IMG/VR virus record: IMGVR_UViG_3300047552_000616
Location: 1-51,683 of that record
From: a virus
Lineage: Duplodnaviria; Caudoviricetes
DNA length: 51,683 nucleotides
Reading direction: 5' to 3' (one strand)
This document shows, one piece after another, positions 24,086-49,007 of the stretch. Both the position numbers and the translations under genes were made by a program. How positions within the stretch are numbered: position 1 is the first letter of the stretch; each line of letters opens with the position of its first letter. A model generated the notes under the pieces. It did not search any database and was not told where the DNA came from. It worked only from the letters and a program-made list of their open reading frames with translations.

Positions 24086-24102
24086 TAGCAAGAACCATGC
24101 CA
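24086..24102 (-). promoter_or_regulatory. sigma54 -24/-12 promoter (ncRNA and replication operon)
   Basis: TGGCATG-GTTC-TTGCTA, intergenic, 44 bp before ATG 24042. Confidence 0.85.
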
Positions 24103-24132
24103 GATATTTGATAGCCTAGTGTTACGTTATCG

Positions 24133-24354
24133 CTAACATCCCCAATTCATCAGTAAGTCATAAGCATTGTATAATTTTCTTAGCCCCTCATATCTACATA
24201 ATACAAAGTCACCATCAGCAAACATACTAAAGTCAGGTATCATTCCATCCCTTGTTATTAGCTTGCCATCTTTAATAATCAATCGGGATGGTTTAGTAAA
24301 TATTTCAGAGATATGTTGAGGTACTATAACTTTTGTTTTCGTTTTCTTTTTCAT
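24133..24354 (-). CDS. Hypothetical protein
   Basis: Likely start MKKKTK at 24354. Confidence 0.55.
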   Translation of the reverse strand: MKKKTKTKVIVPQHISEIFTKPSRLIIKDGKLITRDGMIPDFSMFADGDFVLCRYEGLRKLYNAYDLLMNWGC

Positions 24355-24358
24355 ATTA

Positions 24359-24535
24359 TTAAGGTGCCGGATATTTCTTTGCTGTAAAGTATCCATCTTC
24401 CCATGCTTCGCTCTGAATTTTCTTAATCCAATCTTCTATTGTTTCATTGTTTTGTGCTGTTGATTGAACATCAGTAAAGATCCAATGATTAACTAGAAGT
24501 GCTAGTTCTTCTCTTAATTCAGTGGGTGATTTCAT
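24359..24535 (-). CDS. Small hypothetical protein (58 aa, not in ORF track)
   Basis: MKSPTELREELALLVNHWIF...IKKIQSEAWEDG...; fills the gap; resembles KQIQLDAWKQG in 27711..28064. Confidence 0.55.
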   Translation of the reverse strand: MKSPTELREELALLVNHWIFTDVQSTAQNNETIEDWIKKIQSEAWEDGYFTAKKYPAP

Positions 24536-24540
24536 GTAGC

Positions 24541-25416
24541 TTATTCCATATTAAATATATACTGCGTTATCATACTCTGCAACTGTCGAACATTTCCCAA
24601 CAATGAAAACTCCATCAAACTATCCATTAATGGTTTCCATTCTATGTCATCGGGATCTTCAACCCCATACTTCATCGCGATAGGTTCGATATCTTCTCTG
24701 CGGTTTCGCAATGGCAATATTCTCAACGTAAATGTAGCTAGTCGCCAGTAGAGATCTTCCCTCAACACTGCCATGGGGTTCTGATGTGTAGCTGCTATCA
24801 CCCGTGTGTCGAATGGGATATCTCCTAGTGCTCCAATAGGTCTAGCTTTATGTTCCTGTAAGGCTCTCAATAACTTAGCCTGCAATGGCTTAGGCATATC
24901 TCCAATCTCATCTAGGAATAATGTGCCCTTGTTAGCATAGAATAACAATCCTTCCTTATCCTCATACGCTCCCGTGAAGCTACCTTTCTTGTGACCGAAT
25001 AGCTCGGACTCTACTAGGTAGTCAGGCAAGCTAGTGCAATTCAATGCTACGAAATTCCCGACCCTATTCCCATGCAATGCTCGGGCAATAGTCTCTTTAC
25101 CCGTCCCGGTCTCCCCTAGAATTATCACGGGATGGTTTTCTATGGCTAGCCTGCGGACTATATCTTTCAGCTTAAGCATCTCGGGATTCTTGGTGATGAA
25201 TTTCCTTAGCTCAAATTCACATTCGATACTGGGGATCTTTAGGTCAGTGTATTTGGTTTGGATTCCTCGCCAGAAAGTATTAGCTTGCTGGCGATCACCC
25301 ATTGTGTAGAATCCTTCTACGATTTTAAGTTGCTGTTGAACAATTAGGGGTAAGTGTTCAATGTGTTGGAGGATTGTTAGACCAGATGTTGCTTGTTCGT
25401 GTAGGGGGATAGGCAT
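24541..25416 (-). CDS. sigma54-dependent transcriptional activator (NtrC-family bEBP AAA+), lacking C-terminal HTH
   Basis: GETGTGKE, FVALNC, ESELFGHKKGSFTGA, LFLDEIGDMP, LQAKLLRALQ, RVIAATH, REDLYWRL, PLRNRREDI, GNVRQL; ends ~11 aa later. Confidence 0.95.
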   Translation of the reverse strand: MPIPLHEQATSGLTILQHIEHLPLIVQQQLKIVEGFYTMGDRQQANTFWRGIQTKYTDLKIPSIECEFELRKFITKNPEMLKLKDIVRRLAIENHPVIILGETGTGKETIARALHGNRVGNFVALNCTSLPDYLVESELFGHKKGSFTGAYEDKEGLLFYANKGTLFLDEIGDMPKPLQAKLLRALQEHKARPIGALGDIPFDTRVIAATHQNPMAVLREDLYWRLATFTLRILPLRNRREDIEPIAMKYGVEDPDDIEWKPLMDSLMEFSLLGNVRQLQSMITQYIFNME

Positions 25417-25422
25417 AATGTA

Positions 25423-25716
25423 TTAGTCTTTCAGTTGTTCAACTACTTCGAGTAGTTCATAATTTGTAACAGAAAAATCTTTTATATATTTCTCTGCTTG
25501 TTCTTTTTCTGTGAACAGGAGATTTATATTCTGGCACATAAGAACCCAAAACCTATGTGGTTCAGGTTTGATGCGATAGTCTTCTGGATAACTATTGAAT
25601 ATTGGTTCTGATATATCTTGCCATGTCTCAGCGTTTGCTGACTTTACTTGAATAGTCTTGCCATTTGCATATGCTTCAAACACTGGTAATAATATTTTAA
25701 CTGCTTTTCTTGTCAT
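25423..25716 (-). CDS. Conserved phage hypothetical protein
   Basis: AYANGKTIQ...YRIKPEP motif. Confidence 0.65.
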   Translation of the reverse strand: MTRKAVKILLPVFEAYANGKTIQVKSANAETWQDISEPIFNSYPEDYRIKPEPHRFWVLMCQNINLLFTEKEQAEKYIKDFSVTNYELLEVVEQLKD

Positions 25717-25747
25717 AATGTTATTTGTTACTTGTTATTACTTGTTA

Positions 25748-27022
25748 TTATTTGTTTTGATCCAACTCATCATCTTCAATAAATAATCCCGCCGCTTCTT
25801 CCTCTTCTTCATCCTCTTCCTCATCTCCATCCGCACCTTTCAATAACCTTATGCTTCCCGCCATACTCTCACTGTTAGCATGAGATTGCCCGGCTGCTTC
25901 TAGGATAACATCTTCCCAGCTTTCCTTCTGCCTAACTACTTTCTTTAGGCACTTAAGTTTCATGCTCACTATCGCGGCGACGTGTTCTTCTACTGTGCCC
26001 TTATAGAACAATACAACTTGTGACGTATCACTAAGGCTAGTTAATCGCGGTGCTCGGCCTAAGCCTTGGACTAATTCAATGGCAGAGTATGTTGTGTTGA
26101 GAAATGTTACTCGTTGTCTAGTGGATACCAATGGGATATCTTCTTCATATGCATATCCCGATTCATCTTTCCTTCGGACTTTGTGCTTGGTTAGTTCGTC
26201 AGTGTGATGTAAACTTAGTCCTACTCCACCCGACTTAAATGTGTAGAAACAATACCTGCTTCGGCCCGACTGGAATCTATCTATCTCTTCCTGTCGTTGA
26301 GTCCGGGATTGTGACCCTAAGTTATACCCAGACATATCCCCTAGTCCAGCATCATCCGATTTAAGTTGTTGCTTAATCTTCTTGATTGTTGCTTTCGGGA
26401 TATCATCAAACTTCCCGGACATCATTAATCCAAACACTCGAATAAACTCTGCATTATCAATTCGTTCTGTTTGATTATAGGCTGCATTTCCTCCCCATAT
26501 CAGGGAGATTTCATCTCGCTTTACTTTATATTTCTCTATCAAACATTTAACTGCACGTGCTATTCCTTGTTTGAAGCAGAAGACTGCCACAGGACTTTGA
26601 TCATACTTTGTCCTCGCATCATACATAGCTTCAGCTATTGCTTCAGCTTTACAATTCTCTGCTGCTTCCTTGAACTTCTGCATCTCAGCGAATAGCATGT
26701 AGCCCCTTACCCTGCCATCCAGCTTATCTGCCTTGCTACAAAATTCCATCCACCTTTCCCATGCCGAAGCATAATGCTTACGTTCCCATTCCGTTCTAAA
26801 CTCTAGCAACTGAACACCATTACGAGCATGGAATTGTGGACGTAGATTCTTGATGTCAACTACATGGGGCATGATCTTCTTCATTAGCCTCTCCATAGCT
26901 GATGGAGAATTTTCATCAGGATCTTGCGGGAACGCTATAGCTTTAGCGAATCCAGCCCAGTTTTGGTTAGTGACTTTGCGTTTGGGTGTAGTTATGTTCA
27001 TATCTATATCTATTCTTTCCAT
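25748..27022 (-). CDS. SF2 (SNF2/Strawberry-notch-like) helicase, C-terminal RecA2 fragment
   Basis: AVFCF, IWGG, RQEEIDRFQSG, SGGVGLSLH, QGLGRAPR, GTVEE; acidic tail. Confidence 0.85.
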   Translation of the reverse strand: MERIDIDMNITTPKRKVTNQNWAGFAKAIAFPQDPDENSPSAMERLMKKIMPHVVDIKNLRPQFHARNGVQLLEFRTEWERKHYASAWERWMEFCSKADKLDGRVRGYMLFAEMQKFKEAAENCKAEAIAEAMYDARTKYDQSPVAVFCFKQGIARAVKCLIEKYKVKRDEISLIWGGNAAYNQTERIDNAEFIRVFGLMMSGKFDDIPKATIKKIKQQLKSDDAGLGDMSGYNLGSQSRTQRQEEIDRFQSGRSRYCFYTFKSGGVGLSLHHTDELTKHKVRRKDESGYAYEEDIPLVSTRQRVTFLNTTYSAIELVQGLGRAPRLTSLSDTSQVVLFYKGTVEEHVAAIVSMKLKCLKKVVRQKESWEDVILEAAGQSHANSESMAGSIRLLKGADGDEEEDEEEEEAAGLFIEDDELDQNK

Positions 27023-27333
27023 TTACCTAGTGTCTTTAAGAATGCTTCGGCTCGTTGGCGGGAGGTGGCATTGATGGTTCTGTCGAGAATGAAAGGCTCA
27101 TTTGGTCTTAGTGTCTCCATCAAGACGTGATTGATGCTTACGCGAATGGAGCCTGGTTGAGACATGATCGCCTCGTGCATGGCATTGAGATCTGCGCAGT
27201 AGTTGGGAACATAGGACCAAACGTCGCCCTCGCAATCTGGTTTGTATCCTTCTGGACCATTAACTCTCACAGGATCGATGTCATGCCACCCACAGCACTC
27301 CGCAATCGCGATATTGATTTCGGTGTCGGTCAT
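27010..27333 (-). CDS. Phage hypothetical (ABA-sandwich-like) between helicase fragments
   Basis: INIAIAE..GW...VPNYCADLNAMHEA...ATSRQRAEAFL. Confidence 0.6.
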   Translation of the reverse strand: MTDTEINIAIAECCGWHDIDPVRVNGPEGYKPDCEGDVWSYVPNYCADLNAMHEAIMSQPGSIRVSINHVLMETLRPNEPFILDRTINATSRQRAEAFLKTLGKWKE

Positions 27334-27707
27334 ACATTCACACTGGCATAAAAGTTATCAATTGCTTTCTGTGTTGATTCGAGCCTCTGGTATTCTGGAA
27401 TCTCTTTTGAGAACTCCACTTCTAATTCAACAAGTGCATTGCATAGATCGCAAGCGATGTTCTTCCATGTTGTGGTGTCTGGCACTTGCATAAGTGGAGG
27501 ACTATCCTTGAAGTCCCGTAACCGTTCCCCAAGAATGTTAGAATACTGAACCATGATTTCATGTTGTCGCTTGAGTAAAATCTTGTGCCGATCAGACACC
27601 CCGAAGAGCAAGCGTCCAGAGATGAAGTCATACAGGCGGGCAATTTTGGAATCCAGTTCCTGCTTTTCCGTTGCTACCCGTTCTTCTACATTTTCAGATA
27701 TTTTCAT
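27330..27707 (-). CDS. crAss001_48-like coiled-coil protein between helicase fragments
   Basis: RVATEKQELDSKIARLYDFI...LLKRQHEIMVQYSNILGERL. Confidence 0.6.
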   Translation of the reverse strand: MKISENVEERVATEKQELDSKIARLYDFISGRLLFGVSDRHKILLKRQHEIMVQYSNILGERLRDFKDSPPLMQVPDTTTWKNIACDLCNALVELEVEFSKEIPEYQRLESTQKAIDNFYASVNV

Positions 27708-27710
27708 ATG

Positions 27711-28064
27711 TTACTTGATTTGTTTTATTTGTTGTTGAGAGATAAGAATTAGAATAATGATTACCAAAACAATCTGAACCAAATTAAATGGTTCTTTTTG
27801 AAGACCTGAAAGCCATCCCAGAACAACCAGCAGTAAAACAATGGTTATCATGGTTCCATTGCAAATGTCAGCAGCATCCGTCATCCCCTGCTTCCATGCG
27901 TCGAGTTGGATTTGTTTGACAAATTCCATTAAGTTCTCTGCGCTATGCTCTGATTCATAGGAGAATGTTAGTGATGATAGACTTGTAGCTTTCTTTTCTT
28001 TGGTGTATTGAAAGTCAGGTATAACTGTATCTTCATTCATTACCCACTCTTCTGCTGTTTTCAT
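27711..28064 (-). CDS. Hypothetical protein with C-terminal TM hairpin between helicase fragments
   Basis: MKTAEEW...QLDAWKQG followed by two hydrophobic segments. Confidence 0.55.
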   Translation of the reverse strand: MKTAEEWVMNEDTVIPDFQYTKEKKATSLSSLTFSYESEHSAENLMEFVKQIQLDAWKQGMTDAADICNGTMITIVLLLVVLGWLSGLQKEPFNLVQIVLVIIILILISQQQIKQIK

Positions 28065-28071
28065 ATCTTAT

Positions 28072-29058
28072 TTATTCTTGCTTATAGCTAGCCACTTCTT
28101 CAACATTCATCTCTACCCCACACCCAACACTAACAACCTTAGCTTCACTAACTTTAGTGAATGGTGTTGCGCTGGCGAATACGAATCTTAACAAAGGATG
28201 TCCTATGTCACATGCTGCCTGGAATACTTTGCTTTGCATACTCTTCTCATTCTTTACAGCCTGACATTCATCTAGGATAAACAATACAGGATGGAATAAC
28301 TTCCATTTGATTTCATCTTCCTCCTGCCCATATCTAATTACTGTCTTCCAATCAATATACATCTCCCCAAAGCTAGCCCGGAGTTGATCGTAGTTGGTTA
28401 GCAAGACATCTCGTTTCATATCTAGTCCGAACCAATTAGTTAGCACTCTTCTAGTTTGTTCCACGATACTAGCTTTTGTCACGTAGAATACACTATATGG
28501 GCATAAGTGTTTGCCTTTGATGACTCCCGACTCTATGCTATCACTAATGAACTGACCCAATACGAATGTCTTACCTGTGCCTACACCTGCCGGAATTAGT
28601 GCGCCACGTAGGTTATCTATCCACAATCTAGTGAATAGATTTCTTGCTGCTTCTCGCTGTGGTTTGTAGAGAAACAATCCCGGCTTAGCTTTAGGGGATT
28701 TGTGTAGCTTCAGCTTAGTCGTTGCGTTATCTTCGGGGAACTTATCGCCACATGTAGTAGAGAATACTGTTTCGTAACTAGAGTCCGGGAAGCCTACAGT
28801 ATCTCCGGGGAAATGCAGGTTAGCTAGTTCGGGAGGGAGTTTGGATCTATCAAGCCTAGGGGATTGGGATTCTTCTTTCGCCATCGCACTACTCGTCGCA
28901 GGCAAGCTAGCTTTTGTTGTAGTAATGAGGGCTGTTGAACTTTTGCTTTCTTCTTGTTTGTTTTTGTTTTCATTTTTATTGCCTGGTAACCTTAAGTTAT
29001 TCCAATTGATTGGCGTAGGTTTAGGTAGAATTGTTTTCATTTCATATATTCTTCTCAA
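28072..29058 (-). CDS. SF2 helicase, N-terminal ATPase (RecA1) fragment (likely start 29040)
   Basis: Q-motif LYKPQ, Walker A GVGTGKT, TNYDQLR, Walker B ILDECQ, motif III ASATPF. Confidence 0.85.
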   Translation of the reverse strand: MRRIYEMKTILPKPTPINWNNLRLPGNKNENKNKQEESKSSTALITTTKASLPATSSAMAKEESQSPRLDRSKLPPELANLHFPGDTVGFPDSSYETVFSTTCGDKFPEDNATTKLKLHKSPKAKPGLFLYKPQREAARNLFTRLWIDNLRGALIPAGVGTGKTFVLGQFISDSIESGVIKGKHLCPYSVFYVTKASIVEQTRRVLTNWFGLDMKRDVLLTNYDQLRASFGEMYIDWKTVIRYGQEEDEIKWKLFHPVLFILDECQAVKNEKSMQSKVFQAACDIGHPLLRFVFASATPFTKVSEAKVVSVGCGVEMNVEEVASYKQE

Positions 29059-31998: not shown

Positions 31999-32559
31999 TT
32001 AGGCCGCAGCTTCAGCAGCAGGTTCACCTTCCTTGCGCTTGCGTGACTTCCTGTCAGCTGCTTCCTTCAACGCCTGAGCCTCAGCTTGCAACTGCATCAC
32101 CCGACCAAGCATCTCGATAGTAGCCGTACCACTGTTAATCGCGGCGGTAGCATCAGCCGCTGCCTTGTTCATCTCCGCGAACTTATCATCAAACAAGGCC
32201 AACAGTTCGGCCTTAGTTTCAGTCCGGGAGCTGAGTTCACTCCAGAACTTAGCAACCTTATCCAGATCCAATGCGCCTGCTGGATCTGTGGCATCTTCCA
32301 TGACAGTCTGTGCCATCTGACGCACTTTGGCTGTCAGGTAGTCAATGATAGTTTCCACGCCGAAGAACTTGACAAGGTTATCCCAATTCCCCTTGTCAAA
32401 AAACTTAGGTGATGGCATGTAGAAATACTCCGCAGGCTGTCCTTCCTTCACTCGTTTCTTGTCCTCAACGAGCACGACACTTACGCCATTGCGTTCAATG
32501 GGCAATGGTTCAAGCGTTACGGGAGTAGCAGTCGCGGGGGTAGTGTTATTGTCTGGCAT
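31999..32559 (-). CDS. Hypothetical protein with its own promoter and terminator (probably highly expressed)
   Basis: 186 aa, Ala-rich helical, basic tail RKSRKRK; A-rich leader. Confidence 0.75.
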   Translation of the reverse strand: MPDNNTTPATATPVTLEPLPIERNGVSVVLVEDKKRVKEGQPAEYFYMPSPKFFDKGNWDNLVKFFGVETIIDYLTAKVRQMAQTVMEDATDPAGALDLDKVAKFWSELSSRTETKAELLALFDDKFAEMNKAAADATAAINSGTATIEMLGRVMQLQAEAQALKEAADRKSRKRKEGEPAAEAAA

Positions 32560-32670: not shown

Positions 32671-32687
32671 TAGCAAAAAGCATGCCA
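32671..32687 (-). promoter_or_regulatory. sigma54 -24/-12 promoter
   Basis: TGGCATG-CTTT-TTGCTA, intergenic, upstream of 32559. Confidence 0.85.
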
Positions 32688-33306: not shown

Positions 33307-33442
33307 ATGTTTCTCTACTTTCTCTTTCCCTTTCACCACAGGGATAGCATAGGTTTTTGTGTTGGGGATGTCTGCAGCTGATAATGCAGCCACAGTAATT
33401 GCATAGGCGGTTGTTGCTCACGTTATTGGATCTCCAAGTCAT
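33227..33442 (-). CDS. Small zinc-finger-like protein
   Basis: CNYCG...LCYPCG. Confidence 0.45.
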   Translation of the reverse strand: MTWRSNNVSNNRLCNYCGCIISCRHPQHKNLCYPCGERERESRETYDQAIENQNRQWQQASNTIGAKWPES

Positions 33443-33505
33443 ATGGCCATCTTGCTATGGGAGTTAATGCGAATTCTTCAATTGTGTGGTTATTCATAAC
33501 TTTTC

Positions 33506-33693
33506 TTTAATCTCACCAGAAAACTAATCCCCGGAGGGAATTACTATCTACATTACGGTCATGCGTTATACAATAACTAACTAACTAACTAACTAATCCA
33601 CGATAACAACTCAGTCAACTTTTGTAAGTGTCGTTGAAGTTGAGGGGATACTAACAGGGGATATTTGGGGATTAGTTTTCTGGGAAGATTAAA
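33506..33693. repeat. Long inverted repeat enclosing a (TAAC)n tandem repeat
   Basis: tttaatct-ca-ccagaaaactaatcccc / ggggattagttttctgg-ga-agattaaa; taactaactaactaactaactaa at ~33574-33596. Confidence 0.8.
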
Positions 33694-33729
33694 TTAATAT
33701 TTAATCTTCTTTGGTAGTAATATTAACTA

Positions 33730-33998: not shown

Positions 33999-34014
33999 AG
34001 CACATAGAATGCCA
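33999..34014 (-). promoter_or_regulatory. Candidate sigma54 promoter
   Basis: TGGCATT-CTAT-GTGCT, GG-N10-GC, intergenic, upstream of 33918. Confidence 0.55.
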
Positions 34015-34554: not shown

Positions 34555-34609
34555 GAAAAAGAATAAGGGCGGGAGAGTAGGCTTTATCAGCCCTAACTCT
34601 CCCGCCCTT
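34555..34609 (-). terminator. Strong intrinsic terminator after first early gene
   Basis: AAGGGCGGGAGAGT...ACTCTCCCGCCCTT followed by ATTCTTTTT. Confidence 0.8.
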
Positions 34610-34622
34610 GCTGGTCTATCTT

Positions 34623-35051
34623 TTACTTCAGCCCATCAATCCACTTCACGAATTTCTCTGCCAAGTGCCATTGCGTATTGACTACGCTAATGTTGTGCTT
34701 CAATGCCTCGTTGGCGTAAGCTACGGCCCTTGCGATTGCGATGCTGAACGTTTCGGCACAACCTTTGACTTTGCAGGACTCTCCCAAAGTCAGTTGGCCA
34801 TTATCATTGACTTTCTTGCCCAGCTTAACACTGACTTCAGCGTCACGCATATAGGCGCCAAAGTCAGAACCGAATTGCCGTGCAACTTTCTCGGCCTTGT
34901 CGGAAGTCAGCTTGAAAATACGCTGACTGTCCTGATACAGTTCCTTCATGGCCAAGCTATATCGGCCATTGCCAAAACTGATTTCAGCTTGCTTCGCGTT
35001 GGATTGCTGGTTATTGGATTGCGTTGCGTTCTCAACTGTAGGTGTAGACAT
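34623..35051 (-). CDS. First early gene, hypothetical (142 aa)
   Basis: ATG at 35051 (MSTPTVEN); GC-richer than neighbours; has its own promoter and terminator. Confidence 0.7.
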   Translation of the reverse strand: MSTPTVENATQSNNQQSNAKQAEISFGNGRYSLAMKELYQDSQRIFKLTSDKAEKVARQFGSDFGAYMRDAEVSVKLGKKVNDNGQLTLGESCKVKGCAETFSIAIARAVAYANEALKHNISVVNTQWHLAEKFVKWIDGLK

Positions 35052-35198
35052 AACTCTTAGCTTGTGTTTTACTGTTTCCTCATGCACCGTTCGCTTCTGG
35101 CGAACATTCAAGCGCACAAGGCAAATCCAGAACTGCCAACGCATTCCCGGTTCACTGCTTCGCGACGGCAGATTTCTCCGCCCGCCCGCATGACCAGC

Positions 35199-35266
35199 TT
35201 GTCAAAGATCTGAGGAGAACCTAGCACATCTCTCCATCTTGGCAACATTTATTTTACATTTTTTTT
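35199..35266 (-). promoter_or_regulatory. rRNA-like sigma70 early promoter with UP element and boxA-like site
   Basis: A-tract UP element, TTGCCA-16 bp-TAGGTT (with upstream TG), then GATCTTTGACAA at 35210-35199. Confidence 0.55.
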
Positions 35267-35391
35267 CTAATCATGACAACCATATCCTTTAACTTCCTCT
35301 TATATCATCTATTCTACTTTTCACCCTACTTTCCCATTACTTCCCCTTGTATAACTACCGTTTGCAAGTTTCGGAAAATATGCCCCTATGG

Positions 35392-35455
35392 CTTATATAA
35401 TATATATATATAATATACATATATATATACTATAGTATATCTAATTATTAATTAA
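35392..35455. other. AT-only tract in the divergent intergenic region (possible origin or terminus element)
   Basis: ttatataatatatatataatatacatatatatatactatagtatatctaattattaattaa. Confidence 0.45.
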
Positions 35456-35790: not shown

Positions 35791-35807
35791 TGGCATGGGG
35801 GGTGCTA
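35791..35807 (+). promoter_or_regulatory. sigma54 promoter for packaging/head operon
   Basis: TGGCATG-GGGG-GTGCTA, GG-N10-GC, upstream of terS. Confidence 0.7.
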
Positions 35808-35874: not shown

Positions 35875-36378
35875 ATGACAGCCGCGAATACCCAAGTGGT
35901 TAAGGCATACGAAGACTGTGGGATGCTTCCATCCGAAATTGCGGAGACGCTCGGATGGGAGGAATCTGCGATCAAAGCTATCCTTGCAATCCATAGCAGG
36001 AAATACCGTAGTGATACCAAAGATCTGGGGGGTCCCCTGGAAGTATCCTCTAATGCTATACAGAAAGTAGATCGCGAGGGGGAAAGCGGGGCAGAAGATG
36101 TAGAAATAACAGACCCCGAATACCAAGAGATAATCTCTGCCTACAAACAACTAGCCCTATATAGTGAAGTAGACAGCGTTCGCGAAAGAGCGCTCCGGAA
36201 CCTTATTGATGAAAAGAAGGGTCGAAAACGAATCCTCAGCCCAAGCAAGGTTGGAAGCCTGAATATTGCACAGATTAATGTTTACATAAAACAGGCGCGG
36301 GAGGAGCTTCGGGGAATGATTGAAGGGATAAATCCCATTAACATAGAAGCTGAAGTTAAGCAGTTGAAACAGGGATGA
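35875..36378 (+). CDS. terS: Putative terminase small subunit
   Basis: N-terminal HTH (GMLPSEIAETLGWEESAIKAIL); immediately upstream of terL. Confidence 0.6.
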   Translation: MTAANTQVVKAYEDCGMLPSEIAETLGWEESAIKAILAIHSRKYRSDTKDLGGPLEVSSNAIQKVDREGESGAEDVEITDPEYQEIISAYKQLALYSEVDSVRERALRNLIDEKKGRKRILSPSKVGSLNIAQINVYIKQAREELRGMIEGINPINIEAEVKQLKQG

Positions 36379-38345
36379 TGAAATCTGGTATCCACAAATT
36401 TTCTAGTCCAGAAGAACTTCAGAAGTTCCTTAATCCCATATTAAGGAAAGCAGCAGGGAGGGTAGCTAATGATCCCATATCAGTATCAACAGCAGATCCA
36501 AAAGATAATCTTACTAAATCCCAAAATAATGGAAAAGGGAAAGAGGGAATTGACCTTACTAAACAAGGTAAGGAAATTACGTATGATGTCAAGAGGGAAG
36601 CTAATTCCAATGACATATACGTTCCCGACCTATCCTGTCCCGATTCAGATGGCCAAATCTATCGCGGAGACTTCAAGGTAGAAGATAACACGACAGAAGC
36701 CGAAGTTCGCGAACGCCTAAAGCCTAGAAATCTAGGAGAGTATGAACCACTTGAATTTGCTAATCCCGCAGAAATGTTCATATTCTTTGAGCGAATGGCT
36801 CAGGGACAACGTAAGCCATATTCCTGGCAAATAGAAACATTGTTGTTTCTAGGCAAACAATACTTCAAAGAAAATCCCCTTAGATTCTTCCTGCAAGCAT
36901 GTAATGGTAGTGGAAAGGACTCCTATATCATAGCATTATTTGCTGTATGGTTTATCGCAAGCAAAATCCGGAGTAGATTTATCGGGACATCTAGCTCATA
37001 TACACAGCTCGAAGGTCAAACAGAGAACTATATCCGGACCTATGCAGCACAAATTAATGCAGCAATTGGTGAGAATATCTTCCTAATCAAAAAACAACAC
37101 ATTGTATGCACTAAAACTGGTAGTGAAATTGTATTGTTCAGCACCAATGAACCTGGCCGGGCCGAGGGGTGGCATCCCCATCCGGACTATCCTGATGCAG
37201 AAATGTGCATATGTATCAATGAAGCTAAAACTATTCCCGATGAAATATTCTTGCACCTAAAGAAATGCACAGGCTATAACATATGGTTAGAGGTATCTAG
37301 TCCCGGAGGCACTAGTGGGCATTTCTACAATGAATGCCGGGTAGCAAGACAGTGGAGCGAGGGGTATGATGGAAGAAGTAAATTTAAGCGGAAAGTAACC
37401 TATGCTGATTGTCCACACATAAGTAAACAGGAAGTAAAGGATGCTATAGATGAACATGGAATTGGTAACTTCTGGGTAAGAGCAACCTATTTCGCGGAAT
37501 TCACAGACTTAGATAGTGAAGTAGTAATTGGGGGAATCCTGATAGATAATTGTGTAGAGAATCCCCCACCCATAATAGAAGAATGTCCCGAGCTTCCCTT
37601 AAGGGCGGGGGTCGATTTTAGCGCGGGAGGGGATGAAGATACCATATATGTATTCCGGGGTAACTATCTCTGGAAATCTAAAGCATTCCGGGAAGCAGAC
37701 ACTGTGATAGCAGCGGAGATAGTAATTCAATTCCTATCCTCATGTGGATTTAAGCCGGGGGAAGCTGAGAATGTAAGTATAGATGATGGTAATGTGGGAC
37801 ACATGCTAGTAGATACAATGCAACATAGGGGGTGGTCGGTATCCCGCGTTGCATTTGGTGGCAAGGCAATCAATTCCCTGATGTATGGAAATAAGGGCAC
37901 AGAAATGTGGTTCAATGTTAAGAACCTATTTGAGCAGGGATTACTCCACATACCAAAACAAGTCGCGGCAAGTGACAGGAAACTTCTCGATCAACTTAAG
38001 GGCAGGAAATACAAGAGATCCAATGCTAGCGGTAAACTCATATTACTAAGCAAAAAAGAGCAGAAAGAAGATGGATACCTTAGCCCGGACCGCGCTGATG
38101 GATTTGTTCTAGGTAACCATAGACTTCGTTGGAAAGATCTAGAATCCTTCTTCCGGACTAAACTTGAAGAAACTAAAGTCAAAGGAGTATCCCCTGAAGC
38201 ACTGCCGGGATACTATGATGATAACTTTGTATACAATCGCTTTGAGCAACATCCCCGTGGAACAAAACCTGCTTTGGTTGGAGATCAATATCGGATAGGA
38301 AAGAAACAGATTTTTAGTCACATTAAACGAATGATTGGAATATAA
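36375..38345 (+). CDS. terL: Terminase large subunit
   Basis: YSWQ, Walker A ACNGSGKD, Walker B variant CINEA, SSPG, RuvC-like GVDFSAGGDED, SPDRADG. Confidence 0.9.
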   Translation: MMKSGIHKFSSPEELQKFLNPILRKAAGRVANDPISVSTADPKDNLTKSQNNGKGKEGIDLTKQGKEITYDVKREANSNDIYVPDLSCPDSDGQIYRGDFKVEDNTTEAEVRERLKPRNLGEYEPLEFANPAEMFIFFERMAQGQRKPYSWQIETLLFLGKQYFKENPLRFFLQACNGSGKDSYIIALFAVWFIASKIRSRFIGTSSSYTQLEGQTENYIRTYAAQINAAIGENIFLIKKQHIVCTKTGSEIVLFSTNEPGRAEGWHPHPDYPDAEMCICINEAKTIPDEIFLHLKKCTGYNIWLEVSSPGGTSGHFYNECRVARQWSEGYDGRSKFKRKVTYADCPHISKQEVKDAIDEHGIGNFWVRATYFAEFTDLDSEVVIGGILIDNCVENPPPIIEECPELPLRAGVDFSAGGDEDTIYVFRGNYLWKSKAFREADTVIAAEIVIQFLSSCGFKPGEAENVSIDDGNVGHMLVDTMQHRGWSVSRVAFGGKAINSLMYGNKGTEMWFNVKNLFEQGLLHIPKQVAASDRKLLDQLKGRKYKRSNASGKLILLSKKEQKEDGYLSPDRADGFVLGNHRLRWKDLESFFRTKLEETKVKGVSPEALPGYYDDNFVYNRFEQHPRGTKPALVGDQYRIGKKQIFSHIKRMIGI

Positions 38346-41808: not shown

Positions 41809-41848
41809 AACTCCTAGTCTGGCTATTCCAGCTAGGAGTTTTTTGTTT
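41809..41848 (+). terminator. Intrinsic terminator
   Basis: AACTCCTAG-TCTGG-CTATT-CCAG-CTAGGAGTT followed by TTTTGTTT. Confidence 0.85.
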
Positions 41849-41865
41849 TGGCATGTTTATTGCTA
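41849..41865 (+). promoter_or_regulatory. sigma54 promoter of major capsid gene
   Basis: TGGCATG-TTTA-TTGCTA directly after the terminator. Confidence 0.9.
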
Positions 41866-42019
41866 TATCCGCTCTTGCCACTTCTTGTTGTCCTGGGCAA
41901 ACAACTTCTGCCACTAATTCAGAAGTGAATGGGCATCGCTTCCAGCCAAATTGTTGGTTTCCGGCTGAGATGTGAAACCTATAGTTAATTAACTGTAGTT
42001 TTAAAGTAATTTCTGAATT

Positions 42020-43330
42020 ATGCCTAGTTATGCGATTCCGGCACTAGATGCCAATTATTGCTCAGGATGGAATGAGCAGGACATTAACCTTTACAATAAA
42101 CTTGATTTCTACTTTGCTAAAATGCAAGTAGAGATGAAGAAAGGTTGGCCGCTCTGGAGTAAACTTCTTGGTAAAATCCGATGGCAGCCCAATATGGGTA
42201 ATACCATGCGTGGTGTTACTAAGATGCCCTCGCCCCATCTTCGTCAGTTCGCAGTTCCATCGCCAATTCTTAATGGAACTCTCCCTAAGAAAGATATTCT
42301 TGATGTTCGTGAGCGTAAAGAAGATGTGACGATTTATCGTCATCGCTTTGAGTCTCAGATCATGAACTTCATTCCGAGCTTTCGTGACTTCTTCAAAGAT
42401 CACGTATCTGCTCACTCTACTGATATTGCTGAAAAGCAACTGAGGTATGATGATATCTATATTCGTGGTAACATCTTCCATCAAGCTCCGTTTGTATTCC
42501 TGCCTGATTCTGCTCAGGCTGCTGGTAGCTTGATTGATGCTCCTTATGGCGTGGGTGATGATGCCGGACGGAGTGAAGCAAATGGATATCAGTCTAGCAA
42601 TACAGCTAAAACTAAGGTTTGGCTGCAAGCTAAGTTGGCTGAGATTGGAACTCCCGGCAATCTGAGCTTTAATGCTCTGAATCTGCTGCTAACTATTATG
42701 GAAAACGATCTGCGTATTCCATACTATAGTGGTAGTGATATGCCGAAGGATGATGCTGGACTGAGTGGTAAGTATGTTCTTATCTGCTCAGGGGAAGCTT
42801 GGAACCAATTCCTGTATGATCCCTGGATGCTTGCTAATAAACCTATTGATATGGATGTAGTCCACAATGGGTGGAAAGGTAGCTTCTTTGGTCGCATTAC
42901 AACTAAGATTGAAGATCTTCCTCTTCGTATCTCGGCTGATGGAACATTCCCCAATCCCCAAACTCGGGAAGTTAATCCGAATGCTTATAACTACCAGGAA
43001 ACTATCAACAATCCTGCATACAATAATGCCCCCTATGAAGTGGCATTCCTTGCTGGTGCTCAGGGTTATGATAGTATTGAGATTGGACCGCCGCCGTCGC
43101 CATTCGCGGGTGGAATGCCTGATGGTTTTGGCAAGATGATTTGGAATGGCGAAATTGTCATGACCAAGAATATCTTGATTCCTTGCACAGATGATCGCAA
43201 TCAGCTTACGTATGATACCAATAACTATGGTGAATACCTTAAGTTGATCTCTCAGGTTACTTATGGTATTATGCCTAAGCAACGTCGAAATATCATTCCG
43301 ATTATCTTCCAGCGTAAGCGTGGGGCATAA
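42020..43330 (+). CDS. Major capsid protein
   Basis: 436 aa; W.PNMGNTMRGV; position after scaffold; dedicated promoter; T-ending codon bias. Confidence 0.8.
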   Translation: MPSYAIPALDANYCSGWNEQDINLYNKLDFYFAKMQVEMKKGWPLWSKLLGKIRWQPNMGNTMRGVTKMPSPHLRQFAVPSPILNGTLPKKDILDVRERKEDVTIYRHRFESQIMNFIPSFRDFFKDHVSAHSTDIAEKQLRYDDIYIRGNIFHQAPFVFLPDSAQAAGSLIDAPYGVGDDAGRSEANGYQSSNTAKTKVWLQAKLAEIGTPGNLSFNALNLLLTIMENDLRIPYYSGSDMPKDDAGLSGKYVLICSGEAWNQFLYDPWMLANKPIDMDVVHNGWKGSFFGRITTKIEDLPLRISADGTFPNPQTREVNPNAYNYQETINNPAYNNAPYEVAFLAGAQGYDSIEIGPPPSPFAGGMPDGFGKMIWNGEIVMTKNILIPCTDDRNQLTYDTNNYGEYLKLISQVTYGIMPKQRRNIIPIIFQRKRGA

Positions 43331-44228: not shown

Positions 44229-44239
44229 GCTCCAATTTT

Positions 44240-44668
44240 ATGGCAAATACAGCAGAACAAGCAAACATTCCGGGACTCGGGACAATGTATCCCCGTGCTG
44301 AAGTTCAGATCTTTGATGATTTGAATTACAGGAACATGATTAAGATTAAGCGTGGCACGAAGACGGCCCCACTTATTGGCTCTGCTGCTCGCGAGATCTA
44401 TATTGGACCATGTGTTCTCTATGATATTGTTATCAAGAGTTACTCTGCTGCGAATTGCGATATCCTTGTGTTTGATCTAGCAACAGAGCCGGATACTGAG
44501 GATGAAGATTTTATTTTTGATGTGCTAGCTGGTAAGACTTCTAGCTGGACTAGCGCGAAGGGTTGGCTAATGCGTAATGGTCTTTGGATTATATTTGGAA
44601 CATTAGTTACTGACACATATGTTGCAACTGTTCAATTACGTCCGTTGCCAGGTGCTGTAGTTTCTTAA
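44240..44668 (+). CDS. Hypothetical virion protein
   Basis: 142 aa, beta-rich; GWLMRNGLWI. Confidence 0.65.
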   Translation: MANTAEQANIPGLGTMYPRAEVQIFDDLNYRNMIKIKRGTKTAPLIGSAAREIYIGPCVLYDIVIKSYSAANCDILVFDLATEPDTEDEDFIFDVLAGKTSSWTSAKGWLMRNGLWIIFGTLVTDTYVATVQLRPLPGAVVS

Positions 44669-44711
44669 TTATTAACAATTTATTGGAGAGTGTTCTGGAG
44701 GATCACCAAGT

Positions 44712-46271
44712 ATGAATAAACTAATAGTAATGCTGAGTATAGCTCTCGTAGCAACACTCTCTGATTCTTTCTATGTTGCAAAAGGAGCAGTAGGTAGCAC
44801 GGGAGGGACCGGAGGGGGGACGACAACTGTAAGTGCAGTTGGGGCTATGACTACCAATCTGTATTTGATGAGCACGTTTTCAGATGACCAGAAACTCTCC
44901 CTTCGCATCAGCTACGACGGCACGAATTGGGGAGAGTTTGTGCCAAACTTTCGCGAAGTTTATTCTGATCCTGAATATGCGTTGGTGGGACCAGTGGTGC
45001 GCGATCCGAGTATAATCTACGATGAAGCCACGGAATCCTGGTTGTGTGTTTATACCTATACCTACGATGGATCGAATGCTTTTGGGATTGCTCAGAGCTT
45101 CGATTTGATTAGTTGGAATCGCATTGCCATGATCGACGCGTACGATACGACAGCGGTAACTGCCACCTGGGCACCTGAGTTCTTTGTCGATACGGATGGA
45201 ACTCTCCGCGTTCTTGGTGCACTTGCCACAGGGACAAGTGGTGAGATGGAGATTTACGAGTTCAATGCTACGAGTGGCACTCGCTTGGCATGGTCTGCGC
45301 GCAGCCTACAAATAGCGAAACCGGCTGCTAATGTTAATTTGATCGATCCCTTCATGATGATTCACACCAATGGTGCCTATTGGTTGTGGGTCAATCAATA
45401 TAATACGGGTTCTCCGTATAATCGCTATTATGTGGCCTATACGAATACTGCTGGAGTCGGCAATACATGGTATCCACACAAGACCAACACCACCTGGACG
45501 GTGGACTCATACGAGGGCCTGAGCATCGTCACTAAGCCGGGCGGCGGTTATCGGGCGTATCTCGACAAGACTCCGGGCGGCGTTGGCAACATATTCACCA
45601 GCGAAAGCGCTGACCTGTATACCTGGACTGCTCCTGCTGCTATTGTATGTGCATCCAATGCTGTGCATGGAACAGTAGTGAGATTATCTGATCCGCTGCA
45701 ACGGGCGAATGTGATGGCGAATTGGGGGAAGTCTACGAATCTGGTATTGGGCGATCTCACGGTAAACGGGACTTTGACTTATGATTTGCTTACTGTTGAT
45801 ACAGCAATCGTCACCAACCTCTACGGAAAGATTGGCTGGATTACCAATGCCAATGGGGAATACGTTCCTACGGGGAGTAGCAATGTGACATGGAGTGGTA
45901 TTCAAACATTCAGCGGGAACAACCTATTAAGTGGGTCCAATGTCCAGTCAGGCACACTGCAATATTCAACCAACGCGGCACTTGGAGGAGCAGTAATCAG
46001 TCTTGCAGAAGCCTATCAATACACCAATTGCCTGAACTGGGATGCAGTGCGATATACTTCGCTATCAGGAACCAACGATGCTTATGTGCAATCAACTGTT
46101 CTATTCTTGGAATGCAGCACGAACAAAGTCATTGAAGTGGCTATTCCAGGCGTGCGGTCAGTGGATGGTATTTACACGAACACCATCAACACCACAAGCA
46201 ATGCAGTAATTTCAATTGTTCGTTATGGGAACACGCTAACCAACATGGCGTTTAAAGTATTCCGCCCATGA
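44712..46271 (+). CDS. Secreted GH43/GH32-like five-bladed beta-propeller with fibre-like C-terminus
   Basis: Signal peptide; RDPSII, SFDLISW, WAPE, IDPF, YEG, SADLYTW. Confidence 0.7.
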   Translation: MNKLIVMLSIALVATLSDSFYVAKGAVGSTGGTGGGTTTVSAVGAMTTNLYLMSTFSDDQKLSLRISYDGTNWGEFVPNFREVYSDPEYALVGPVVRDPSIIYDEATESWLCVYTYTYDGSNAFGIAQSFDLISWNRIAMIDAYDTTAVTATWAPEFFVDTDGTLRVLGALATGTSGEMEIYEFNATSGTRLAWSARSLQIAKPAANVNLIDPFMMIHTNGAYWLWVNQYNTGSPYNRYYVAYTNTAGVGNTWYPHKTNTTWTVDSYEGLSIVTKPGGGYRAYLDKTPGGVGNIFTSESADLYTWTAPAAIVCASNAVHGTVVRLSDPLQRANVMANWGKSTNLVLGDLTVNGTLTYDLLTVDTAIVTNLYGKIGWITNANGEYVPTGSSNVTWSGIQTFSGNNLLSGSNVQSGTLQYSTNAALGGAVISLAEAYQYTNCLNWDAVRYTSLSGTNDAYVQSTVLFLECSTNKVIEVAIPGVRSVDGIYTNTINTTSNAVISIVRYGNTLTNMAFKVFRP

Positions 46272-46957
46272 AAACCCTCCTCGCTTTTCTCCTATTCCCG
46301 CTGTGCCTATTTGGCCAGCCGTTCACGTTCAACGACACGGCCTTCATGGGCAATTTGACGGCGGCTGCGAGTAGCGCGTACTTGATAGATGAAGACTTCG
46401 AGGGCACTGGCGCTCCATCAGTCTGGACAACCATTGGCGGCCTTCCAGACTGGGATCATACCGATACACCGTTGGAAGGATCTCAAAGCTGCTGGACCAA
46501 TTCAATCAATGCGTACATCAATTACGACTTTGGAGCGAATTATGATACACTCTCGATTTACTTCATCGTCTCCATTACCAATGCGCCCGCGTCGTCAATA
46601 CACTGCGTTGCATTTCAAAACGATGGAACTAATCTTTCCTCTTTTTATCTATTAACAACCTCTGGAAGCATCAGGGTATACAATGGCACGGTAAACTCTA
46701 CAGCGGCAGGAGTTCTTAACTATGCGGAAGCTGTGTATGTGTGGATGGACTACACTAAGGGAACCGGTGCAGATGGCATAACAAGAATCTATATGTCAAA
46801 CACTTCCAGTAAGCCAGGAACAGTCACTGTAGAGCGAGTTAATGGCAATGCGATGCAAGGAGTGAAGGCTTTGAAAGTGCGATTCGTAGACACGGGAATG
46901 CTCATTGACAAAATCCGAGTCAGCACATCCATCCTTGGAAACGGTGGTGTGCCATGA
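46268..46957 (+). CDS. Secreted concanavalin/LamG-like beta-sandwich protein
   Basis: Signal peptide MKTLLAFLLFPLCLFG; EDFEG...IDKIRVS. Confidence 0.55.
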   Translation: MKTLLAFLLFPLCLFGQPFTFNDTAFMGNLTAAASSAYLIDEDFEGTGAPSVWTTIGGLPDWDHTDTPLEGSQSCWTNSINAYINYDFGANYDTLSIYFIVSITNAPASSIHCVAFQNDGTNLSSFYLLTTSGSIRVYNGTVNSTAAGVLNYAEAVYVWMDYTKGTGADGITRIYMSNTSSKPGTVTVERVNGNAMQGVKALKVRFVDTGMLIDKIRVSTSILGNGGVP

Positions 46958-48378
46958 GAACTTTTCTTGCATTTCTACTTGGCTGCAATATGGCGTTTTC
47001 CGCCACCACAAACCAGCTTGTTCAGTGGGGGATTACGTTCCAATTCGATGCCGCAGTAGACTACGGCACATTTGCCAACGGCGATTACTGGGTCGTTACC
47101 CCAGTTACAGTAACAAATCTGTTACCAGAATGGGATTTGCGCAATCACGGATGGGAAATTAATCCGACGTTCGTAACAGCACAGGGATTTACGACCAACC
47201 TATCAACATACAGTGAAGATAAGCGCCCGGCGCTTCCTTTCACGCTTACCACAAATTGTTCGCTGGTGAAAGTGATTAGCACTAATGTGGAAACGGATTC
47301 AAGCTATGTGCTGTCGGCGGCTGTGTTGACTGCGCTTGAATCTACTCCTGCGGGAGGCGGCGCGGGTTATTTTCGACCGCCATACGTCGGCACAAACAAG
47401 CCGCTTTATTTGGTGAGCGATTTGCAGAGCAGCATTCTTCCAAGTATTGGAACAGCAAGCAATGCAGTGGGACTTGCCGATGTGCTTGCAGACTTTTCAA
47501 AGTGTCTTAGGATGGATCACAACTCAGGATCGCCTCGCTCGACAAGGCCAACGTATGCAATGAAAGGCTACCAGCCAAACAACACTCCAGAGTTAAACGA
47601 GGCCATGATGCAGTTGATGCTAAATGACAGTTACGCCGATAAACTTCCTGCATTGATTCAGTTCACGCAGCACACAATTGACCAGTTACACGTTGTGATG
47701 CTGGGATACCGAGCGAGCGACAACGGGCACAACCCGAATCATCGAGTTTTGGCAGCATGGGCGGCTACCATGCTGAACATAACCGAGGGCAAGACTTACA
47801 TGGCCACGGCGACGAACTTTCATGAGGACATATACCTTTCGGATGGAACAGCAGGGTTTGCTTTGTGGGGTAGAAGTTATCCCGAAGCAAGCTATTGGAC
47901 CTACATAATTAGTGGGGACGGAGATCGGTCAATTCGCGATCCATATTTCATAATCGACGGAGGAGATTTGGAAGGCACGGGTTATCAGAACATTGTTTCT
48001 CAATCTCTAAAAGGTCAGGCGTTGGCGTTCATTCTATTCACAAATATGCAAGCGTGTTTGCCCGCAAGTCGATTTAATACGCTGTCGAATTACGCTTACC
48101 GTTGGGTTAACACAGGAAAGTGGGCAACTCCAGACCCAGTGGCGCCCTACGATGGAACTCCAGAGAATTACGGTGTTACCTTTGGACCTGATGGAATGGG
48201 AAGTTACATCGCAGGATCTGGTAGATTTCCAGCAGCGCATGGGACATTGAAAGATGAAGGCACATACAGGAGCGAGTTTGTGGCAACGATGTGGGACCAG
48301 TATTGGAATTATAGAGCGCCTCTTCCACGATCCAGCACCATCCAAACCCTGCGCGTGGGAACTTTGCGGACGCCATAA
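46954..48378 (+). CDS. Secreted hypothetical protein, possibly carbohydrate-active
   Basis: Signal peptide MRTFLAFLLGCNMAFS; GTFANGDYWVV, FRPPY; helical core; C-terminal TIQTLRVGTLRTP. Confidence 0.6.
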   Translation: MRTFLAFLLGCNMAFSATTNQLVQWGITFQFDAAVDYGTFANGDYWVVTPVTVTNLLPEWDLRNHGWEINPTFVTAQGFTTNLSTYSEDKRPALPFTLTTNCSLVKVISTNVETDSSYVLSAAVLTALESTPAGGGAGYFRPPYVGTNKPLYLVSDLQSSILPSIGTASNAVGLADVLADFSKCLRMDHNSGSPRSTRPTYAMKGYQPNNTPELNEAMMQLMLNDSYADKLPALIQFTQHTIDQLHVVMLGYRASDNGHNPNHRVLAAWAATMLNITEGKTYMATATNFHEDIYLSDGTAGFALWGRSYPEASYWTYIISGDGDRSIRDPYFIIDGGDLEGTGYQNIVSQSLKGQALAFILFTNMQACLPASRFNTLSNYAYRWVNTGKWATPDPVAPYDGTPENYGVTFGPDGMGSYIAGSGRFPAAHGTLKDEGTYRSEFVATMWDQYWNYRAPLPRSSTIQTLRVGTLRTP

Positions 48379-48411
48379 AGGAAACAAGGAATAGCACAAC
48401 TCAGTTAAAAT

Positions 48412-48738
48412 GTGAGCCATAATGATAATCAAAGAAATCAACCAAGAACTAACGGACGAGGTCTTGAAACGGCACAGAGGGTGGCGGCGATTGCTTTGGC
48501 TGCTCTCACTTTCGGCGGGATTGTCTTTAGTGCTGGCAGCCTTTTCCAGCGGATTGGTAGCGTCGAGCGAACCATTGCCGTTAATAGCGCCCGGCTTAAC
48601 GAACTTGAGCTATGGCGACGAGAGGCCTATGGAGCTGTTATTGACAACGCGGCACAGCACAAGCGTATCGAGGAATTGATTAGGGATATGAGGGAGGATA
48701 TTGCGAAACTGGAATTACTGATAAGGAATAGACCATGA
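48412..48738 (+). CDS. Single-TM coiled-coil protein (holin/lysis-associated)
   Basis: TM VAAIALAALTFGGIVFSAG followed by coiled coil. Confidence 0.6.
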   Translation: MSHNDNQRNQPRTNGRGLETAQRVAAIALAALTFGGIVFSAGSLFQRIGSVERTIAVNSARLNELELWRREAYGAVIDNAAQHKRIEELIRDMREDIAKLELLIRNRP

Positions 48739-48938
48739 TGAAAGACTGGAAAACAACATTAGGTGGAGCATTGAGTGCTCTAGGAACAACATTAATGGGT
48801 GTTGGAACTGTCACCGCACTAAATGGCACCAATACTAAATGGATTCAAGGGATGATGATTGGTGGCTTTATTCTTAGTGCATTTGGTAAGTTCTTCACTG
48901 CACTATTTACTCCTGATAAAACTAATGGGCAATCATAA
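48735..48938 (+). CDS. Putative holin
   Basis: MMKDWKTTLGG; two TM segments; 67 aa. Confidence 0.65.
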   Translation: MMKDWKTTLGGALSALGTTLMGVGTVTALNGTNTKWIQGMMIGGFILSAFGKFFTALFTPDKTNGQS

Positions 48939-48991
48939 TGCTCATTGATGGATTCCGGGGAGTGTAAGTGAGAGTGGTGATCATTAACTAA

Positions 48992-49007
48992 TGGCATGTG
49001 AAATGCT
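48992..49007 (+). promoter_or_regulatory. sigma54 promoter for tail operon
   Basis: TGGCATG-TGAA-ATGCT, GG-N10-GC, intergenic, before ATG 49024. Confidence 0.7.

Follow-up and report, generated by a model that had tools for sequence, protein, structure and literature searches.

The stretch of DNA analyzed here, hereafter the window, is a complete tailed-phage record of 51,683 bp and 43% GC (Duplodnaviria; Caudoviricetes; IMG/VR record IMGVR_UViG_3300047552_000616), and our subject is a set of sigma-54-type sites within it, together with a phage-encoded bacterial enhancer-binding protein (bEBP). The first and last 123 bases of the record are identical, and one open reading frame (ORF) leaves the right end while another enters the left, so the map is effectively circular or the repeat lies within a gene. 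Genes are laid out divergently around a control region at ~34.0–35.8 kb. The leftward arm (34.0 to 11.6 kb) holds small genes, a two-piece helicase, the bEBP, a PD-(D/E)XK nuclease, an AAA_24 protein, a two-piece family-A DNA polymerase (PolA), and a DUF3987 (primase-like) protein, and the rightward arm holds virion genes from 35.9 kb through the ends to 11.7 kb. ORFs were called greedily at a minimum of 80 aa, which leaves 11.2% of the window non-coding. The elements that carry the argument are listed below, with site scores from the weight matrix described further on.

33999..34014, minus strand: sigma-54-type site TGGCATTCTATGTGCT, a variant with GTGC at -12 (14.9 bits; predicted start ~33988), heading the first leftward unit (33948 to 32731)
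32672..32687, minus strand: sigma-54-type site TGGCATGCTTTTTGCT (22.3 bits; predicted start ~32661), heading a long leftward unit that holds the helicase pieces and the bEBP gene
24541..25416, minus strand: phage bEBP, 291 aa, with an AAA+ sigma-54 interaction domain (residues 74-231), the loop ESELFGHKKGSFTGA, and a lid
24087..24102, minus strand: sigma-54-type site TGGCATGGTTCTTGCT, the top-scoring one (24.1 bits; predicted start ~24076), heading the replication unit (nuclease, AAA_24, split PolA, DUF3987 primase-like)
35791..35806, plus strand: sigma-54-type site TGGCATGGGGGGTGCT, a variant (13.4 bits; predicted start ~35817), heading a small helix-turn-helix (HTH) protein, a terminase-like gene, and a portal-sized gene
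41818..41836, plus strand: hairpin resembling a terminator, with a T run, immediately before the putative capsid promoter
41849..41864, plus strand: sigma-54-type site TGGCATGTTTATTGCT, the putative capsid promoter (19.4 bits; predicted start ~41875, leader ~145 nt)
42020-43330, plus strand: major capsid protein, 436 aa, HK97 fold by model, nearest to N4-type capsids
48992..49007, plus strand: sigma-54-type site TGGCATGTGAAATGCT, a variant (13.4 bits; predicted start ~49018), heading a lipoprotein, a lectin-domain protein, and further virion genes

An earlier note on this DNA had proposed six -24/-12 promoters at the heads of the middle and late operons, and all six sites are present at the positions it gave. 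The strict form TGGCATG-N4-TTGCTA occurs three times (24086-24102 and 32671-32687 on the minus strand, 41849-41865 on the plus strand) against 0.00 in 100 shuffles. The relaxed form TGGCAY-N6-TGCW occurs exactly six times window-wide, at 24087, 32672, and 33999 on the minus strand and at 35791, 41849, and 48992 on the plus strand, with none beyond these; 0.50 are expected from 100 shuffles and 0.62 (maximum 4) from 200 dinucleotide shuffles. Every one of the six is non-coding, is oriented with the next gene, and keeps the exact GG-N10-GC spacing, and the terminator claimed for the capsid site corresponds to the terminator-like hairpin at 41818-41836. The extended consensus of sigma-54 promoters is TGGCAC-N5-TTGCW (TGGCACG-N4-TTGCW in the earlier note). 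Gaps of at least 40 nt number 17 in the window, six of which carry a site, and all recognized transcription units but one (that of the 173-aa gene at 34623-35144) are headed by a site.

The weight matrix was trained only on 25 sites from five relatives, and 20 shuffles covered a range of 9.0 to 17.8 bits. In this matrix scan against shuffled sequence, a kind of check that the earlier note called for, the three perfect sites (24.1, 22.3, and 19.4 bits) exceed the best shuffle (17.8 bits), and the three variants, which depart from the consensus at the T preceding GC, fall in the chance range. The case for the variants consequently comes from where they lie, how they are oriented, and which sites match them in relatives, not from their scores; at least one relative has a counterpart for each. 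A candidate seventh site, absent from the earlier list, is uncertain:

3332-3347, plus strand: candidate site TGGCAAGAATTTTGCT (16.0 bits, within the shuffle range), in sense orientation inside the ORF 3094-3453 and 99 nt upstream of the next gene

Conservation across relatives was followed along two routes, a search with the bEBP that returned 13 viral contigs and a search with the capsid alignment that returned 38 loci. Nine of the 13 contigs are from phages like that of the window, with 2-9 sites apiece; the remaining four have 0-1, and the reversed pattern totals 2 over all 13. G009 and G013 (unrelated, of 63-66% GC, and returned by the bEBP search) and G010 and G012 (with 0-1 site each) were left out of the family counts. 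Five relatives that are 90-100% complete make up, with the window, six fully analyzed genomes, which have in common the bEBP, helicase, PolA, terminase-like, portal-sized, and capsid genes at 22-57% identity. Pooled, the six genomes hold 44 sites where ~3.4 are expected, with 31 of the 44 non-coding and 40 in sense orientation. Enrichment is confined to the N6 spacing, with 44 sites where each of N3-N5 and N7-N9 yields 2-7, and the consensus of the 31 non-coding sites, T-TGGCA(T/C)G-nttc-TTGCT, matches the canonical consensus quoted in the earlier note.

The placement of the sites recurs as well. A site lies just downstream of the bEBP gene in five of the six genomes and upstream of the orthologous small gene of the packaging unit in five of six, sites are placed as at 32672 in G003, G004, G006, and G007, comparable weak sites occur at the divergent junction in several relatives, and G006 has a site before its orthologue of 49518-50696. 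Among 31 further records, a Sigma54_activat frame is found in 20, and every one of the 19 with a completeness of 90% or more is among them; completeness in the 11 records lacking it is 14-74%. In the 19 genomes the motif occurs 137 times and the reversed pattern 7 times. With the window included, genomes with this capsid protein and at least 90% completeness number 25; all of them encode the activator, and they carry 4-10 sites each. At the capsid loci a sense site lies 126-283 nt upstream in 38 of 38, compared with none of 38 in antisense and none of 38 within the gene, and 32 non-redundant capsid upstream regions carry 2 bits at the fixed motif positions and ~0.15 bits per position in the flanks. 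The motif set, whose absence from related genomes the earlier note had named as grounds for refutation, is therefore conserved in them. That the sites arose by chance or from sequence composition is favored by the three window sites that score within the shuffle range, but is effectively refuted by the controls: six sites, all non-coding and in sense, where 0.6 are expected, the 137 against 7 in the 19 relatives, the capsid loci, and an enrichment limited to one spacing.

The two unrelated high-GC viral contigs with a bEBP homologue, G009 and G013, show no genome-wide excess of the motif, so that the genome-wide regulon is a property of this phage family and not of every virus with a bEBP. On G009 (46 kb, 63.5% GC), four TGGCA-N7-TGC words at three loci, one of them palindromic, were observed at 3311-4863 near the bEBP homologue; this cluster may mean that another virus uses sigma-54 locally and in a different way. 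The capsid protein itself has 394 relatives in a 90%-identity protein collection, and none of the 120 listed among those 394 bears a functional name (‘hypothetical protein’ or nothing).

The second component of the system is the activator, and the claim that the phage encodes a real bEBP holds. Its 291-aa product matches the Pfam family Sigma54_activat (PF00158) with E 3.5e-54 (183.4 bits against a cut-off of 20.2), and its best matches among solved structures (PDB) are the AAA+ domains of the NtrC family and FleQ (E 7.7e-45 and weaker). That alignment runs through ESELFGH-KG-FTGA and pairs GSFTGA residue for residue with GAFTGA. The contact loop is GSFTGA in the window and G(S/A)FTGA in 25 short phage homologues, in which F, T, G, and A are invariant, as are G101, G104, G106, K107, D169, E170, R219, R225, N275, and R277, columns that cover Walker A, Walker B (DE), the arginines, and the N-x-R of sensor II. 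The phage protein thus has the same contact loop, Walker motifs, arginine fingers, and sensor II as bacterial bEBPs of the NtrC, PspF, FleQ, and ZraR type, whose promoters have the same -24/-12 architecture.

Unlike those bacterial bEBPs, the phage protein is viral and lacks both a receiver or sensor and a C-terminal HTH. No HTH_8, receiver, GAF, or PAS domain is detected by Pfam, and the protein stops after the lid; its structural model (predicted local distance difference test, pLDDT, 88.4) comprises ~55 helical N-terminal residues, the AAA+ core, the lid, and nothing further. All 25 short homologues likewise end 10-25 residues past sensor II, with an N-terminus that is barely conserved. No enhancer sites were found either, as no 8-mer is common to three or more of the six 300-nt regions upstream of the sites, which fits an activator working from solution. 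Together, the missing C-terminal HTH and the missing common upstream word place the phage protein with the minority of bEBPs that do not bind DNA. Known bEBPs that work without DNA binding are Helicobacter FlgR, Chlamydia CtcC, and PspF lacking its HTH. Like these minimal activators, the phage protein would be expected to act from solution on promoter-bound holoenzyme; unlike it, they are cellular and still controlled by a receiver or a partner, whereas the phage bEBP has only its poorly conserved, ~70-aa helical N-terminus.

The nearest proteins in a large collection are 267-306 aa long and of the same architecture, and they are often encoded on contigs of ~52-55 kb; bacterial GlrR and NtrC regulators rank after them. 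The family has a PHROGs entry, phrog_7998, labelled ‘unknown function’. Among 50,697 deposited phage records, 66 have bEBP matches, all below 60% identity. Many of the matches listed stand under atoC, glnG, zraR, prpR, or rtcR or in records named after bacterial strains, most of the others listed are unannotated records, and no annotated, isolated phage of this type was seen among them.

A bEBP gene beside sigma-54-type sites might nevertheless be read another way, with the sites fired by host bEBPs and the phage ATPase acting on host genes or on the host sigma-54 regulon. A sigma-54 site also heads the unit of the phage bEBP gene, which means that something else has to act first, and there is a phage protein of bEBP-like fold with reported effects on the host: according to a preprint (10.64898/2026.10.06.757011), Htm (Gp204) of Mosigvirus AV110 changes host gene expression, carries an altered Walker B motif, and is without the GAFTGA loop. 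Compared with Htm as described there, the bEBP of the window retains G(S/A)FTGA and DE and has matching promoters on its own genome. Host bEBPs, moreover, normally need their own enhancers, yet no common upstream word exists here and the flanks are unconserved in 32 lineages. The bEBP is also a core gene in 25 of 25 complete genomes, and in five of six a promoter directly follows it. We regard activation by host bEBPs as very unlikely.

The earlier note had also recognized no phage RNA polymerase or sigma factor, and our searches agree: no sigma-54, no sigma-70 region 2 or 4_2, and no T7-type RNA polymerase were detected in the window, although the T7-type model (PF00940) matched no control genome either, which makes that single negative weak. 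An RpoN-box-like peptide is found in none of the six frames. A factor that escapes recognition could still read a motif that merely looks like sigma-54’s, with the AAA+ protein serving replication or packaging, given that most of the phage proteins have no family match and that a large virion protein is unexplained. This 1736-aa protein (6455-11665, plus strand) stands at the end of the virion module, and its orthologues measure 1444-2450 aa. N4 injects a giant virion-packaged RNA polymerase, a hallmark of the N4-like phages (Schitoviridae), and the capsid of the window phage is N4-like. The 1736-aa protein, though, has no Pfam or PHROG match and no D-x-D-x-D motif, and its nearest language-model clusters, which serve as a lead only, are polyvalent or internal core proteins. 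The motif match, furthermore, spans both promoter elements with exact spacing and a flanking T, and the residues for sigma-54 contact and ATPase activity do not vary within the phage clade. A phage factor or polymerase of this kind is in our judgment very unlikely. Despite its N4-type HK97 capsid fold, the phage is not filed as a member of the N4-like group.

Promoters of other types were also sought. The sigma-70 consensus is not enriched (30 against 35.1 expected; 22 against 32.3 expected), nor are Bacteroidota-type promoters (TAnnTTTG, 40 where 40.8 are expected; with TTTG placed at -33, 7 where 6.2 are). The one unit that lacks a sigma-54 site has other signals:

34565..35279, minus strand: unit without a sigma-54 site, holding a 173-aa gene (35144-34623)

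A sigma-70-like TTGTCA-17-TAAAAT lies at 35279-35251, and a perfect 14-bp hairpin at 34565-34609 followed by a T-rich run provides the unit with its own terminator. The 173-aa protein (34623-35144) has no family match, and its orthologue in G006 sits behind a sigma-54 site. From this arrangement, 34623-35144 is a candidate immediate-early gene.

Evidence on the host is indirect. Shine-Dalgarno-like words precede five of 52 window genes and 4-12 of 39-52 genes per genome over the window and the five relatives, in which the regions upstream of genes are A-rich; this pattern suggests that translation in the host begins for the most part without Shine-Dalgarno pairing. Taken with a crAss001_48 domain in one small ORF of the window, it hints at a Bacteroidota-like host, and we reach no conclusion on the point. 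A weak lead comes from the only binned relative, a contig of this phage family, 49.9 kb long and with four sites (G014 contig C112, L030), that is binned in a 1.5-Mb metagenome-assembled genome (MAG) titled Deltaproteobacteria bacterium. This MAG has rpoN and 16 more motif matches on its other contigs; the reversed pattern occurs five times MAG-wide. The two sequencing runs that fully hold the window are freshwater DNA runs by their labels and may be where this DNA came from, and no RNA run holding it is among the runs listed.

Considering these observations together, the six sites are best read as -24/-12 promoters of the host sigma-54 RNA polymerase that are switched on by the phage bEBP, a reading to which we assign a probability of roughly 0.85 from sequence evidence. 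The wider proposal of the earlier note, that the promoter set and the phage bEBP form a regulon over the replication, packaging, capsid, and tail modules, is likewise supported. Several observations weigh against this interpretation. First, the three variant sites score 14.9, 13.4, and 13.4 bits, inside the shuffle range of 9.0-17.8, and four gaps of 163-521 nt carry no site. Second, the contact loop of the clade is GSFTGA or GAFTGA, not strictly GAFTGA, and the N-terminal ~70 residues of the bEBP are confident helices with no family match, for which a DNA-binding role is possible. Third, the bEBP gene itself stands behind a sigma-54 site while no sigma-70- or Bacteroidota-type promoter is enriched. 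Finally, host sigma-54 is assumed, with the MAG binning as the only lead and a weak one, and a wastewater run labelled RNA-Seq that has contigs of a relative, mostly 90-99% alike, is probably DNA.

If host sigma-54 and the phage bEBP do work together, host sigma-54 holoenzyme would sit on the phage sites as closed complexes. The bEBP would be constitutively active once made, would touch promoter-bound sigma-54 from solution in the manner of DNA-binding-deficient bEBPs, and would spend ATP on opening those complexes at every phage promoter. With no activator present, a sigma-54 promoter stays silent, so the amount of phage bEBP would become the clock. Because the bEBP gene lies inside the unit headed by 32672-32687, positive feedback is suggested: a small first dose of bEBP would be amplified through this unit, and the replication (24087), packaging (35791), capsid (41849), and tail (48992) units would then fire. 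The gene lies at the far end of that unit with the top-scoring site directly after it, an order that recurs in relatives and points to amplification by feedback, after which the replication unit would fire. Strength or timing may be graded by the quality of the site. Perfect sites lie at the helicase/bEBP, replication, and capsid units and a weaker one, with GTGC at -12, at the divergent junction. Such a phage would need no polymerase or sigma factor of its own and would depend on an rpoN-bearing host.

The capsid unit may have a further layer of control in its mRNA leader, where two stem-loops with a TGGGCA loop core represent the family-wide AGGGCA-loop element:

41887-41905, plus strand: first leader stem-loop
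41922-41942, plus strand: second leader stem-loop

In 35 of 39 leaders (L032-L069 and the window) there are one or two stem-loops whose loop is (A)AGGGCA(U) and whose stems covary freely, against a mean of 2.1 of 39 for shuffled leaders and none of 39 for reverse complements. Counted without selecting for pairing, at least four flanking base pairs are present at 34 of 35 distinct AGGGCA words in leaders and at none of 51 elsewhere in the same loci, and GCTTCTA-like words often flank the leader stem-loops. The AGGGCA element was not found after other sigma-54 sites. No Rfam family is matched at gathering score, with one sub-threshold, chance-level match near the capsid promoter, and the folding of the capsid leader as a whole is not unusual (z -1.63), so that only the two local stem-loops are supported. 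The element may be the operator of a translational regulator, a stabilizer, or a nut-like site. With the leader element included, the fuller picture would be of a widespread, uncultured, ~50 kb lineage with an N4-like capsid that runs nearly its entire transcription through host sigma-54, with an enhancer-independent, sensor-less bEBP in a positive-feedback unit, the dose of activator as the clock, and the capsid mRNA also under a new paired stem-loop element. We consider this composite probable, and hold it less firmly than the promoter assignment itself.

The labels given to the genes of the units are of unequal strength. The capsid label stands by fold: a model of the 42020-43330 product built from an alignment of 80 relatives (pLDDT 85.4) has as its top Foldseek matches the capsids of N4, Moo19, B2, and DEV, with E from 8.1e-12 (9e99_B) to 6e-10. 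The 656-aa protein at 36375-38345 clusters with terminases by language-model features (score 0.99) and is a lead-level candidate for the large terminase (TerL), while the packaging label of its unit is likely; sequence searches of the large terminase and portal against solved structures gave nothing useful. The earlier label of small terminase for the gene before it is plausible only, as the 167-aa product has a weak HTH match and its place before the terminase-like gene. The tail-operon label is plausible to the same degree and rests on position and lectin-like domains. The gene behind the 48992 site has an N-terminus resembling a lipoprotein signal (MNRRSF...LAGC), a likeness seen in the sequence, and a lectin-like domain is found among the genes that follow; its ATG at 49024 is only ~6 nt past the predicted start at 49018, so the mRNA would be nearly leaderless.

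Other features of the gene map were noted. Of the virion-module products examined (44712-46271 and 49518-50696, both plus strand), a clear Laminin_G_3 lectin-like domain was observed in one protein and a Glyco_hydro_43 match below threshold (31.1 bits; cut-off 32.2) in the module; these products are candidate receptor-binding or depolymerase proteins. A PHROG match (E 2.4e-4) of 31999-32559 to a ‘major head protein’ is regarded as spurious because the capsid gene is identified elsewhere. The helicase occupies two ORFs (25748-27022 and 28072-29058, minus strand) that both match one fused ORF in relatives, and three small ORFs part the pieces, of which 27330-27707 has the crAss001_48 domain; the split at 25748-29058 looks like an insertion into the gene. 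The family-A DNA polymerase also occupies two ORFs (15549-17111 and 13808-14836, minus strand), as in relatives, and a 138-aa ORF and a 324-nt gap lie between the pieces in the window. A site-less gap of 336 nt (33394-33729) holds 27-nt inverted arms (33506-33532 and 33667-33693) that are 93% complementary and a run of CTAA repeats, and an AT-only palindromic tract occupies 35394-35434 within the divergent control region; the arms and the tract are candidate origin or regulatory elements. No tRNAs were found in the window, and no close DNA relatives of it were found among deposited phages.

Routes by which phages take over transcription are few: their own polymerase, a sigma factor of the sigma-70 family, or a sigma-70 holoenzyme modified by activators, inhibitors, or antiterminators. 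N4 SSB and Mu Mor/C also turn the host polymerase to phage genes (compare 10.1101/2025.05.02.651988). In T4, gp55, gp33, and gp45 activate late genes through host polymerase (PMC2988020). The arrangement proposed here is similar in that a phage factor would steer host RNA polymerase to middle and late promoters; the factors of T4, N4, and Mu use sigma-70-family holoenzymes or a phage sigma, whereas here the machinery would be host sigma-54 and an ATP-driven activator. Bacterial bEBPs serve stress and metabolic operons, unlike the phage bEBP, whose targets would be the phage’s own replication and virion genes. A single sigma-54-like promoter region has been described for Pseudomonas phage YuA, in a passage that makes no mention of a phage bEBP; by comparison with that one promoter, the family studied here has 4-10 sites per genome and an activator as a core gene. 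No description of a natural phage with its own bEBP and a matching promoter set was found among open-access papers and bioRxiv. The parts, sigma-54 and a bEBP, are textbook components; their enhancer-less and sensor-less use as the backbone of a viral program would be new within the literature covered.

Sigma-54 is usually seen as a cellular pathway for stress, nitrogen, and flagella. If our interpretation is true, the promoters of this phage family would be fully silent until its own ATPase appears and would be insulated from host sigma-70 regulation. The cost would be strict dependence on host rpoN, which predicts a simple route to resistance and a host range limited to sigma-54-bearing bacteria. 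PHROG 7998, now of ‘unknown function’, would gain a function, and a seemingly enhancer-free bEBP of ~290 aa with its compact promoters would offer useful parts for orthogonal expression. For the family itself, the -24/-12 motif would serve as an annotation handle for its transcription units in metagenomes.

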